DNA of 64,000 nt, taken from contig CAJNOJ010000203.1 of NCBI GenBank assembly GCA_905250025.1, positions 64,001 to 128,000 on the forward strand. The letters are read 5' to 3'. Source of the stretch: Adineta ricciae. Taxonomy: Eukaryota. This document shows, piece by piece, positions 42,700 through 64,000 of this stretch. Numbering within the stretch: the first letter of the stretch is position 1; the number at the start of each line of letters is the position of its first letter. The translations under genes were made by a program, and so were the position numbers. A model generated the notes under the pieces. It saw only the letters and a program-made list of their open reading frames with translations, did not search any database and was not told where the DNA came from.

Positions 42700-45600
42700 T
42701 TACTCTGTTCTGTCCCAATGCGTTGCTCAACTGTTGTGCTCCGTCATTTCCAATCTGATTACCAGAAAGATACAACTCCTTGAGTCCCTAGGTAAAAATA
42801 CAGAGATGATTAAAAATCAAAGTAAGAGTGCTTTTCTCAAAAATTAACTTTTAGTACGTTATTATATCAGAACTCATCGTAAACAACATATTTTTGAAGT
42901 GAAATAAAACGACGAAAGCTCTATCTTCGCAATAGAGATACATCTATTATTCAAACAAAATAAATCCTCTGTATTTACGATGCACGATATTCCGTTTCTT
43001 AAGAGAATATTTTCTACAGTTCGTAACGTTCATCAACACACTGGACACTCATCGACCGAATAGATAGCTTACTTGATTCTGAGTCAGCATACCAGCGAGG
43101 TGCCGTGCACCCTCATCCTTGATTTGATTTTCATGTAGATATAGATGCGTTAATGTCTATACATACAATTGAAAAACATTATCAAAGATGTTCACTGTCA
43201 TTGTTAAATTTTCCTAACTGTGTCTCTCGTGTCATTTCGGTTCTCGAAGTAACTACAAAACAATCATAAATGTCGTGTCATACGTTCTTTTCATTCTACT
43301 ACCAATTTTCCCGGTTAGATTTGTTTCGAAATGATCGCATTTTGATGGTGACTAGTAATATCAAACTTAATCACGATTTTGCACAAGATGATCTTATTGA
43401 AATTATTTGCTCATAGAACTAACAAATAGAAAACCTTGTTATTATTAGTGTGTATATTCGCTTCAATCTTGAAGTCTAATTATTTCACTTTCTCGATCAA
43501 ATTTGAGAATAATTAATGATAAAAATGTAAATTACACTCAACTATTCATGTTCTATTTCATTATACTGCAGCTAAATCGAATTCTACACTACTAACGAAT
43601 ATTTTTAGTTGGAAAAATCACCTACCCTATTGTTATTCAGCGCATTGGCTAATTGTTCTGCTCCTGTGTTTGTAATTTGATTTCCACCCAAATACAGAAC
43701 GGTAAGAACCTATTCGTAAAAGTAAAAAGTTCAATTACAACTCATAGTCTAACTAAAATGATTTAACTAATTTTCTTATTTTCTAAGAACAAAACACAGA
43801 CGAATGATTGAAAAGGTGTGTGATGATCGTTATGAATAAAAAGAAATACATCTCGTCTCACAAATTGATGTCAGTGATCACATTCTCAGAAGTCTTTTCT
43901 TATTATCGTGAGATTAAATATTTTCGATTAGGATTAAGAATTCTGTGAAATACAAAATGCATCCATATATCAAAACAGAAAAGCAAAAGTTCGCATTTAC
44001 ACTAATGAAATGCTCTAAACTAATCGTTCATGGTCTTCTATTTATTATTCGCTAATAAGACTAATTATAACAAGAGTAAATCACAAATAATCATTGTTTA
44101 TCGATTAAAAACATTCTTCCAGTGATAATAATTTTAGAATGAAACTGTGATACGAGATGATTTCTCTTCTTGATAATTGAATTAATCAATGATTTATATT
44201 TATCACTATGTAGATCTGCATCAAACAAAGTATAGAGCCCTTCATTAAGAGAATCGGAAAAATATCGTATTTCCCTTGCACAAAACTGATGCTCTGATCA
44301 ATCTTCGACGAGATTTATCGAAAAATCTCAGCGTATGTTTTTAGGATTAATTATCAATATATCGTACAAACTGTCGATATAATCTCAATTTCAGATCATT
44401 TGATGATGATCGTATTTCAAACAACATCCGTCGATTAGTTTGCTAGACTATGACAGATAGTTCTTGCGTAAAGCAGAAGAATACTTCGAACTAGGGAGAG
44501 CAGTTTACCTGGTTTCTTATCAATGCTTCGGCAATACGCTGTGCTCCAGTATCTTTAATTTGGTTTGCTTCCAAACCAAGGTGAGTTAACGTCTACAACG
44601 AAACGGTAGTATGAAGAGGGATGCATAAATACTGAATGAAAACAATTGAATGTCATTTGTTTTCGAGAAAGTCGCTCTGTTTCGTACATAGAAGATAGAA
44701 GTACTCTTCTGGTTGGTGTGATAACAGTTTCAAGAGTCATGAATATCAAGTTTAATGAACTTGATGGAGAAGTAAAAGCAAGAGGAGACATAAAGCAAAG
44801 TGTAAATTTGGAGGACGAAGACAATATAAATATTTAAACAAGTGAAGAATCACTTGTTTTGTTACAATAAGAAACAGCTTCACAAATTTACAACTAACCT
44901 ACTGATAAATCACTTAACTATCTGTAGACAAAGTGTTTTAAAGGAAATGGTTTAGTAAAATTTTCGTTATCGATATAAACATGATACTACGATGAAATGA
45001 ACATCAAAATTCGAATGTATAATTCAAATTAAAAAATATCTTATTCGTTCTCAGCACTTCTTCAATATATTACATGTCGATATAAATAATTTTATGTCAG
45101 TTGTTGTACTGAACAGTATAAAGAAATAATCGATGACACAACAAGGAAACTCAAATTGTTCTTTCAAAATTAAACATTTCTTTATTGGTTACTTCTGAAG
45201 CGGTGTTGTGACTTTACATTATACACATAGCCTAGTCTCAATCTGGGAAATATTTGCATTTTATTCAAACTTATTAGATGATCTTCTTCTAAATTGAAAA
45301 GTGCTCTTCACCCTCAATTGTCTTATTCGATACGGTTCAAGATCTATCTATAATTTAAAAACTGACTATCAAAGATAGTTACCTGATTAGTTCGAAGAAC
45401 ATTAGCTAAATACTCCGCACCTGTGTCGGTAATTCGATTTTGATAAAGTCCCAATTGAGTAAGTGTCTACTCGTCAGAACGATAAAAGAAATTAAGTCAA
45501 AATTTAGAAGAAAAGTATTTAATTTATAAATCAACTAGATAGTCTGATTATTTAACAGTACGATTTAAATTATTATAAAAAATTCAATTCAATTATGTTT

Positions 45601-62399: not shown

Positions 62400-64000
62400 A
62401 AAGAAAAAATTGCATGTCTTTACCGTATTTTGCTGCAGTGTATCGATCAGTTCCTGAGCACCATGGTCACCAATTTGATTGTAGGCAAGGTAGAGCGTAC
62501 TCAATGTCTATTTGAAAATAGAATATATCTAGCAGACTTTGGACAAGAGAAGTTGCTGGTTACTCTGTTATGCACGAGAGCATTTGCGAAGCTTTGAGCG
62601 CCCTGATCACCGAGCTTGTTCGAATAGAGATTTAGTATGGTCAACGTCTATGAAGATACAATATCGCCTAAAACATGCGTACAAGATTAGGGAGAGTACC
62701 GTATTATGAACAAGCGCATTAGCCAGATGTTGAGCTCCTTGAGCCCCGATGTCGGCTTCAGACAGATGGATGATTGATAATTTCTACAGAAGTAAAGTGG
62801 AGAAAAGACAGGATTAGACATACTATGATGATAACCTTATTTTGCGCGAGAGCATCAGCAAGATATTGTGCACCTTGATCACCGACTTGATTTCCCGAAA
62901 GATGAAGGATTTCCAGTGTCTGTACAATAGTATAAATGGATAATGATGATGGAATCAATCGATTGTATTTAATACCTGATTTTTAGTAAGCACATCAGCA
63001 AGTTGTCGAATACCTTGAGCAGTAATTCGGTTATAACTTAGATCGAGTGTTCTTAAAGTCTACACACACAAGAAGTATTTTTGAATGTTGTTACTTCCAT
63101 TTTATGTACTTTATTTTGATTGAGAGCGTCTATCAGATGTTGTAATCCATCGTCGCTGATTCGATTTTTGTGTAAGGAAAGTTCTACTATTGTCTGCAAA
63201 TTAGACGAAGAGAAAATGAATAAGGATATAGTAGAAAAACACCTTGGATTGTTACCGAATTTTGTGCAAGGATAATGGAAAGACTTTCTGCTCCTTGATC
63301 GTCGATTCGATTCTCGGTCAGACGAAGTTCCGTCAATTTCTATATACATATCAACAGAACGATTTACGAAGAACAAAACATCATTATATTCACATTATTG
63401 TTTTGCAATGCTTCATTTATGAGTTGTACATCTCGATCTGCCAACAGTCCCATACTGATTGTCCATTGTTGCGCATCCTGGTGATCAGCAATGAAATTTT
63501 CCAATTCAGGATGATGATAAACGATCTCGTCTTTTGCGTGATGTCGAGTTACAGTCACTTGTGCATGATGTCGAATTAATTCTCTTATCTGTGCGATATT
63601 TTCAAGACTTATTCCTTCAGTGTTATATTGGTACATGATCGGCTTTCTTAACCTTCCTAAGATTTCACTGACTCGTTTAATATGAATAAGAAAACATTGT
63701 TTTGCCCGTGACAAGTTCATCTGATTATCACATGACCGACGAATATGGAACAGTTGCTTTTGAGTGTGTAAAACTTCGGCTTGATTTTGTATTCGAGTAC
63801 GATATTTATCCACGTCTTTCGTTTCAATTATTTCAGTCTTTTCAATTTTCTCCATGATCTCCCGTTCATATTCTTCAATAATGTTTTTTAAATTGTTCAT
63901 TGCTCCACTGACTTCTTCCTTTATCGTTTTATGACGAGTATCACTATTTTTTGACAATTCATCACTTTCACTGATTTTTATATTCAAGGATGCTTCAGCA
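62400..64000 (-). CDS. RBCC-LRR gene B (tandem paralog of gene A): coiled-coil exon plus at least 7 single-LRR exons; 5' part (RING/B-box) lies beyond the window end
   Basis: The coiled-coil exon at 63364-63987 ends …DRDVQLINEALQNNNV, like the CC-LRR junction of gene A. Seven 84-nt LRR exons lie at about 63240, 63100, 62970, 62825, 62690, 62550 and 62437 (…LHKNRISDDGLQHLIDALNQNK…), separated by introns of only about 45-60 nt. The last exon ends in a donor, so the gene continues below 62437. Confidence 0.6.

Follow-up and report, generated by a model that had tools for sequence, protein, structure and literature searches.

A TRIM-like gene with an array of NLR-type leucine-rich repeat cassettes, and its gene neighbourhood, in the bdelloid rotifer Adineta ricciae

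Bdelloid rotifers are ancient asexuals; how they cope with pathogens is an open question, and little is known of their innate immune receptors. Here, we analysed a 64,000-nucleotide stretch of Adineta ricciae DNA (contig CAJNOJ010000203.1, positions 64,001 to 128,000; hereafter the window), in particular its last 21 kb. A sequence-only reading of these 21 kb had proposed an immune-like cluster of four genes: two that join a RING, B-boxes and a coiled coil (RBCC) to leucine-rich repeats (LRRs), one with a ubiquitin-like (UBL) domain and an NHL propeller, and one with an ADP-ribosyltransferase (ART) domain and TPR repeats. The window DNA is nuclear and belongs to A. ricciae, and the ART-TPR open reading frame (ORF) at 54396-56444 is 100% identical to the annotated A. 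ricciae protein P0001. A second A. ricciae contig (CAJNOR010000364.1, here L001) is collinear with window positions 44204-64000 at 84-100% identity and carries the same genes; it is the other haplotype or homologue of the region. Pfam searches and exon models bore out most of the earlier domain calls (RING, B-boxes, probable coiled coil, LRRs, UBL-NHL, ART-TPR, DEAD-box helicase and carbonic anhydrase, CA). The genes of the region are the following.

42686-51739, minus strand: RBCC-LRR-1 gene (Pfam RING, B-box and LRR_6 matches; spliced model; collinear with the Adineta vaga orthologue P0121)
53045-54168, plus strand: UBL-NHL gene (PF00240, PF01436)
54396-56444, plus strand: ART-TPR gene (PF03496 and TPR families)
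56552-57690, minus strand: conserved gene without Pfam match, earlier called a plakin fragment (syntenic Rotaria counterpart)
~57953-59974, plus strand: DEAD-box RNA helicase gene with several exons (PF00270, PF00271; syntenic orthologue in the Rotaria locus L008)
60447-61630, minus strand: alpha-carbonic-anhydrase-related (CA-like) gene (PF00194)
62424-64000, minus strand, running past the window end: B-box-CC-LRR-2, hereafter gene 2 (coiled coil and LRR exons)

The exon model of RBCC-LRR-1 was guided by collinear alignment with P0121, and the splice junctions were read. It comprises 21 exons that encode 927 amino acids in a single open frame, with canonical AG/GT at all junctions. The domains follow in the order RING, B-box1, B-box2, coiled coil with linker, 3 LRRs, a second linker/cap and 14 LRRs.

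51496-51739, minus strand: exon 1, start codon and C3HC4 RING (PF13445, PF00097, PF15227)
51115-51437, minus strand: exon 2, B-box1 (ZZ/ANCHR-like; PF22586 and PF16366, B-box1-like) and B-box2 (PF00643)
50465-51061, minus strand: exon 3, predicted coiled coil and first linker/LRR N-cap (alignment with structure 8amr)
49685-49858, minus strand: exon 7, second linker/cap, an ancient internal duplicate of the end of exon 3 (kept in orthologues)
42704-50406, minus strand: 17 LRR exons, each of 84 nucleotides (28 amino acids), phase 0-0, between YAG and GTRAG (regular-expression and hidden Markov model scans)
42032-42115, minus strand: decayed LRR pseudo-exon past the last intact exon, with two in-frame stops (translation LTTLNL*NN*IIDNGTRSLVDSIRNH)

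The RING encoded by exon 1 shows 79% identity to residues 1-82 of A. vaga P0121. Exon 3 has no Pfam match itself; residues 141-272 align with the TRIM3 B-box/coiled-coil structure 8amr, and the bdelloid paralogues P0261, P0265 and P0268 match PF25600 (TRIM_CC). The second linker exon is present in the orthologues of A. vaga, Adineta steineri, Rotaria (R. socialis) and Didymodactylos carnosus, so the internal rearrangement that had been read as a sign of turnover is ancient. The introns of the LRR array measure ~60-1,350 nucleotides and are mostly long for an otherwise compact window, which explains the fall of G+C to ~31%. The array exons resemble one another (60-76%) and the introns are mutually dissimilar; Tandem Repeats Finder and a repeat search detected no recent tandem duplication at the DNA level in the array. 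The decayed pseudo-exon suggests that repeats have been lost at the end of the array. No NACHT/NB-ARC or death-fold domain emerged when the RING, B-box and coiled-coil exons and 9 of the 17 LRR exons were scanned with Pfam, and the orthologue P0259 and the paralogue P0261 likewise matched only RING, B-box and LRR families.

We then placed the two halves of the protein among known families. The closest solved relatives of the RBCC part are TRIM3 (8amr, E = 1e-13) and the TRIM2 RING (4e-11), and its nearest named match outside bdelloids is a TRIM3-like protein of Lingula. The LRR part matches PF13516 (LRR_6, E = 2e-40), and its best PDB matches are RNH1 (the ribonuclease inhibitor, RI), NOD2 and NLRP14/5/3, with E from 1e-44 to 1e-24. 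A full HMMER pass over 1.84 billion protein representatives, with the RBCC-LRR relative P0122 as query, gave 18 matches at E<=1e-30. Among the best 150 representatives, a B-box or RING was joined to this type of LRR in 5 only, all of them from Rotaria. The RBCC-LRR family is small, with 18 clusters at 90% identity and one or few copies per species, and all its members are bdelloid. Protein and literature searches matched the RBCC and LRR combination to no described family, a point in favour of the earlier reading; within the library searched, no published description of a TRIM-LRR or RBCC-LRR architecture, in rotifers or otherwise, was found. Judged from its sequence, RBCC-LRR-1 represents a TRIM variant that is new and confined to bdelloids, bears a cassette array of NLR-type LRRs and keeps UBL-NHL as a conserved neighbour. 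A TRIM-like E3 ubiquitin ligase carrying such an array would join two major animal immune toolkits.

To describe selection, the ratio of nonsynonymous to synonymous substitution rates (dN/dS, omega) was compared per segment between the window and the L001 haplotype; two haplotypes of Rotaria magnacalcarata served as a second pair. In A. ricciae, dN/dS was 0.13 for the RING, 0.68 for the coiled coil, 0.64 for the second linker and 0.37 for the LRR exons overall, and 0.17 for the UBL, 0.41 for the NHL and 0.39 for ART-TPR. The replacements in the LRRs are unevenly spread. Nineteen of the 29 amino-acid changes between the haplotypes fall at 5 of the 28 repeat positions (3, 4, 6, 8 and 9; p = 2e-8), which are the variable residues of the LxxLxLxxN strand and line the concave face. 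On this face omega is 1.14, against 0.19 elsewhere in the repeats, and the corresponding values in R. magnacalcarata are 1.01 and 0.20; the contrast between face and scaffold is significant in both pairs (Fisher p = 4e-4 and 0.02). Because omega is ~1 on the face and ~0.2 in the scaffold, the predicted binding face is unconstrained or diversifying and the scaffold conserved. The check for positive selection that had been suggested for the LRRs therefore gave a divided answer: the concave face is not under purifying selection, and its omega does not significantly exceed 1. We do not claim positive selection, since a value of ~1 indicates lack of constraint or diversification only.

The array also differs in length between species. 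The LRR exons number 3+14 in A. ricciae, 3+>=16 in A. steineri (over >20 kb), 3+>=8 in R. magnacalcarata and 3+~4 in D. carnosus. In R. socialis, the annotated proteins P0123-P0127 are near-identical save for whole 28-residue cassettes that are present, absent or swapped; P0125 and P0126 differ by one cassette. These differences may stem from gene prediction, haplotypes or alternative splicing. They show that the LRR exons are interchangeable in frame, and are no evidence of real alternative splicing. In R. magnacalcarata, one LRR cassette exon (L003, 12385-12468) carries an in-frame stop (TLTR*DLYT...) and is intact in L004; it would have to be skipped, unless the allele is truncated or the stop is a sequencing error. 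At its most far-reaching, RBCC-LRR-1 might be a bdelloid-specific intracellular pattern receptor and effector in one, with the 17 cassettes, set apart by unusually long introns, spliced combinatorially and variable between haplotypes and with UBL-NHL as an obligate partner. We consider this improbable; if true, one locus would give rise to a diversified recognition repertoire.

A plainer reading is that RBCC-LRR-1 is a housekeeping gene, namely a single-copy E3 with a cellular (for example cytoskeletal or ciliary) substrate, whose variable LRR sites reflect weak constraint and have nothing to do with immunity. The low copy number and the occurrence of orthologues in all bdelloids sampled would fit this, as would the dN/dS of 0.37 for the LRRs overall and 0.13 for the RING, the absence of a face omega above 1, and the fact that RI-type LRRs match the ciliary LRRC34 and DRC5 as well as NLRs. 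However, the number of LRR exons shifts greatly between genera (from 3+~4 to 3+>=16), the array ends in a decayed exon, one Rotaria haplotype has an LRR exon with a stop, haplotype replacements are concentrated on the ligand face in two genera, and the family is restricted to bdelloids. On balance we regard the housekeeping reading as unlikely.

UBL-NHL consists of two exons separated by a 53-nucleotide intron (53259-53311) and encodes 356 amino acids, in which a ubiquitin-like domain is fused to a six-blade NHL propeller. The UBL ends in ...ISLIRR, lacks a C-terminal Gly-Gly and reads over the intron into VVQDD and the NHL repeats; it is a built-in domain, not a conjugatable modifier. The propeller is closest to those of TRIM71, Thin and TRIM3/2. 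It belongs to a crowded family, as an NHL search returned 1,589 matches at E<=1e-20, including ART-NHL and caspase-NHL fusions, and hundreds of further bdelloid NHL proteins share 50-60% identity with the window NHL. Related Rotaria propellers (P0234, P0247, P0256 and others) are fused to ART (PF01129), caspase (PF00656) or Apple domains. The bdelloid NHL propeller is thus a widely reused module carried on differing effector domains.

RBCC-LRR-1 and UBL-NHL, which we term block A, are neighbours in all three bdelloid genera examined (Adineta, Rotaria and Didymodactylos). The flanks compared in other species reached at most 10 kb and often ended at contig ends. In A. steineri (L002), on four R. 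magnacalcarata contigs (L003-L006) and in D. carnosus (L007), the UBL-NHL orthologue (P0139, P0147, P0148 and P0156 among the proteins) immediately precedes the RBCC-LRR-1 orthologue and has the same orientation (head-to-tail). The two genes are 147 to ~500 bp apart, the spacer being 147 bp in R. magnacalcarata and ~250 bp in D. carnosus. In A. ricciae they stand head-to-head, and one of them has therefore been inverted in this species. No other window ORF (>=70 amino acids, whole 64 kb) had a match in the flanks of the pair at L002-L007.

This pan-bdelloid adjacency is compatible with functional coupling without proving it, and raises the question of whether the two genes form a co-transcribed "split TRIM-NHL". 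The pair would then be an operon-like tandem in most bdelloids and share a bidirectional promoter in A. ricciae, with the UBL as a docking module that links the NHL propeller to the ligase or the proteasome. Adjacency in all three genera, which has outlasted the A. ricciae inversion, and the short spacers agree with such a module. So do the affinities of the two proteins (nearest to TRIM3/TRIM2 for the RBCC, and to TRIM71, Thin and TRIM3/2 for the NHL) and the small size of both orthologue groups within a very large wider NHL family. Bdelloids also use spliced-leader trans-splicing. On the other hand, conserved adjacency is the background state in these genomes. As unrelated genes of a second block, described below, keep their order and orientation too, adjacency alone is no proof of functional coupling. 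Moreover, the NHL gene lies upstream of the RBCC gene, unlike the outcome expected of simple fission of a TRIM-NHL gene, and its NHL domain resembles hundreds of others at the identity given above. We see the two-gene module as a possibility, albeit a doubtful one.

ART-TPR is a single exon encoding 682 amino acids, with an N-terminal region, an ADP-ribosyltransferase domain of the R-S-E type and then TPR_12 repeats. The Pfam match of the ART domain (PF03496) is marginal, at 24.7 bits with a cutoff of 23.4. Its motifs are intact: R (VYRGQ), STS (FLSTS) and ExE (ENEVLF) occupy columns that are >=90% conserved among 121 homologues. A phmmer search of PDB sequences gave nothing useful as a solved structure for the ART region. 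An ART-TPR search yielded at least 2,331 matches among 8,000 candidates, nearly all from Adineta and Rotaria, many of them named NAD(P)(+)--arginine ADP-ribosyltransferase, and the Gene Ontology table of a published study assigns arginine-ART activity to 431 of ~60,000 A. vaga gene models. ART-TPR is thus a member of a family with hundreds of genes per genome. It is probably an active arginine-type mono-ART of this very large family, unlinked to the other genes. A. steineri is the only other species with comparably close ART-TPR matches, yet it has no close orthologue: the best identity is 45-47%, and the nearest relative there sits among unrelated genes. Within A. ricciae, a 321-bp in-frame indel separates the haplotypes (window 54444-54802), and the L001 ART-TPR lacks ~107 residues of the N-terminal region ahead of the ART domain (577 versus 680 amino acids).

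Beyond ART-TPR lies a second conserved block, block B. In Rotaria sp. Silwood1 (L008), gene 2, the CA-like gene, the DEAD-box helicase on the opposite strand and the unassigned gene follow one another in the same order as in the window down to 56552. Neither ART-TPR nor UBL-NHL nor RBCC-LRR-1 occurs within 10 kb of this Rotaria block, beyond which different genes follow. The unassigned gene at 56552-57690 is 60-67% identical to its syntenic Rotaria counterpart. Its ORF at 56552-57355, previously called a plakin-repeat fragment, has no Pfam match at E<=0.01 and is part of this conserved gene.

Gene 2 contributes a coiled coil and 7-8 LRR exons to the window, with introns of ~50-110 nucleotides. 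In L001 the gene starts with a single B-box (PF00643), and neither a RING nor a first B-box is found upstream of that B-box. Its coiled coil is only 22% identical to that of RBCC-LRR-1. The view of gene 2 as a second, duplicate RBCC-LRR gene is hence not upheld. RBCC-LRR-1 and gene 2 each have their own counterpart in Rotaria, and the duplication therefore predates the Adineta-Rotaria split; it is no sign of recent turnover, as the tandem duplication had been taken to be, nor were recent tandem repeats found at the DNA level in the LRR array. The tract over gene 2 (window 61700-64000 against L001 17000-19288) is 100% identical between the two A. ricciae contigs, introns included, with 84-97% identity in the remaining alignment. 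This looks like recent gene conversion or loss of heterozygosity.

The CA-like gene is 68-75% identical to its Rotaria orthologue. When the orthologue is aligned with CA13, the zinc-ligand positions H94, H96 and H119 (CA II numbering) are occupied by Y, R and Q. The window ORFs have the same residues, in EIYIRL within 61117-61326 (H94 and H96) and in IQLVAYN within 60450-61067 (H119), and the product is probably acatalytic. The annotation joins gene 2 and the CA-like gene into one fusion gene both in L001 and in a Rotaria protein (P0413). We rejected this as the preferred model, as Rotaria P0410 begins with a hydrophobic stretch of its own, a putative signal peptide, and P0261 has its own C-terminus. 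No first exon was identified for the CA-like gene in the window. A minus-strand ORF at 61759-62112, between this gene and gene 2, shows 44-53% protein identity to an unannotated stretch at the same position in Rotaria sp. (L008 14603-14967); it could supply the 5' exon of the CA-like gene or be a small gene in its own right.

Blocks A and B lie apart in Rotaria; the 21-kb region is thus where two conserved blocks join, and ART-TPR occupies the seam. None of the compared flanks of block A and block B loci contains ART-TPR. These comparisons bear directly on the original proposal that the four genes are one co-regulated sensor/effector system in which LRR recognition is coupled to ubiquitylation and ADP-ribosylation. 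All four do lie within 21 kb, and their arrangement is kept in both A. ricciae haplotypes; the ART motifs are all preserved, the RING evolves under purifying selection, variation is seen on the LRR face, and ART is fused to NHL or TPR in many bdelloid proteins. However, A. steineri, R. magnacalcarata, Rotaria sp. and D. carnosus do not show the arrangement: the two blocks lie apart there, and neither is accompanied by ART-TPR in the flanks compared. Agreement between L001 and the window is uninformative on function, because everything between the two copies is collinear. Furthermore, ART-TPR has no close orthologue in A. steineri, gene 2 has no RING, and a locus with another B-box-LRR paralogue (L009) has no NHL or ART neighbours. 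We give this reading very little credence, and the four "immune-like" genes are therefore not to be taken as one system. What stands of the linkage is the pair of RBCC-LRR-1 and UBL-NHL, two of the four genes, and not the cluster as a unit. The earlier observation is in this sense confirmed in part and its interpretation supported in part, without support for a coordinated cluster.

LRR, TPR and NHL proteins are known to have expanded in bdelloids (PMC3846280). Because the ART-TPR, NHL, LRR and TPR families are very large, such domains are expected to come together somewhere in a genome-wide scan. The main text of a bdelloid infection study (PMC11258130) makes no mention of NHL, TPR, ART, LRR or ubiquitin. 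This is a caution for genome scans: where ART, TPR, NHL and LRR genes are counted in hundreds and local gene order is well kept, the grouping of "conflict-type" domains does not testify to a system.

Taken as a whole, the region is probably best explained as an ordinary chromosome segment in which old blocks A and B meet with ART-TPR at the seam, and in which RBCC-LRR-1 is a TRIM-type recognition E3. The presence of ART-TPR at the junction is most likely a lineage-specific arrival. By homology of its domains, RBCC-LRR-1 would be an E3 ubiquitin ligase of the TRIM type, dimeric through its coiled coil and with a RING that recruits an E2. The target or ligand would be bound by the NLR/RI-type LRR solenoid, in the place usually taken by SPRY or NHL. 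Single-repeat, phase-0 cassette exons would let the ligand surface diversify, as suits a recognition protein, plausibly one in defence. UBL-NHL may act as its partner. Several points weigh against this explanation. Every functional step in it (E3 activity, dimerisation, ligand binding and defence) is taken from domain homology. The omega of the LRR face is not significantly above 1 (binomial p ~0.5), and relaxed constraint at structurally tolerant positions accounts for it as well as diversifying selection does. RI-type LRRs also match the ciliary or housekeeping proteins LRRC34, DRC5 and RanGAP. Given the length of the compared flanks, a more distant ART-TPR is possible in the other species. 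Finally, the chance of an ART gene in a neighbourhood of 6-8 genes, calculated from the A. vaga counts, is ~4-6%, which is not large; an A. ricciae-specific link of ART-TPR to its neighbours is therefore possible, though unproven.

The rest of the window was surveyed as well. A gene for a ubiquitin chain-elongation factor of the Ufd2/UBE4 type lies at ~36000-39200 on the minus strand, ~4 kb past the 3' end of RBCC-LRR-1. The remaining genes are ordinary and include a carboxylesterase, a rhodopsin-type GPCR, a polycystin channel and SNAP. Two ORF sets on the plus strand (7503-8422 and 19646-20496), ~12 kb apart, are alike in a signal-peptide-like start (MKAALA..., ...DQLVQQ) and all but identical in a C-terminal segment (HSNNKS...LDQSQKP), as if a gene for a small secreted protein had been duplicated and dispersed. 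Two long uninterrupted ORFs on the minus strand, 25564-28719 (1052 amino acids) and 10803-12941 (713 amino acids), have no Pfam match at E<=0.001. The former contains an ILDRSGS motif reminiscent of the MIDAS site of vWA domains.

Compared with known systems, the CA-like gene recalls the CA-related proteins (CA VIII/X/XI and RPTP gamma/zeta), which have the alpha-CA fold with zinc histidines replaced. In the CA-like gene all three ligands are replaced (Y, R and Q), and the likeness is one of fold and residues. ART-TPR shares the R, STS and ExE motifs with the R-S-E mono-ARTs (C3/VIP2 exoenzymes, PF03496; ARTC, PF01129). Unlike these classic enzymes, it looks intracellular, is fused to TPRs and is one of hundreds of paralogues.

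For RBCC-LRR-1, the order of RING, B-box and predicted coiled coil is the same as in TRIM2 and TRIM3, class VII TRIM-NHL proteins. These have a C-terminal filamin domain and NHL propeller, whereas RBCC-LRR-1 has 17 LRRs of the RI/NLR type. In TRIM-NHL proteins the propeller is part of the same polypeptide as the RBCC; here it is encoded by a separate, adjoining gene, behind a ubiquitin-like domain. RBCC-LRR-1 likely follows the same logic as the antiviral TRIM5alpha and TRIM21, in which a coiled-coil-dimerised RING E3 bears a C-terminal binding domain with a varying surface. Recognition in TRIM5alpha and TRIM21 is by B30.2/SPRY, and in RBCC-LRR-1 it would be by an LRR solenoid with a face omega of ~1, not significantly higher. 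With NLRs (NOD2, NLRC3 and NLRPs) and the ribonuclease inhibitor, RBCC-LRR-1 has in common the 28-residue RI-type unit LxxLxLxxNxIGDxGAxxLAxAL. NLRs possess a central NACHT/NB-ARC; RBCC-LRR-1 has an RBCC ubiquitin ligase as its predicted N-terminal effector and no NACHT in the parts scanned. The array resembles that of NLRs in its gene structure too: each repeat is encoded by one phase-symmetric exon, so that exons can be gained, lost or skipped without a frameshift.

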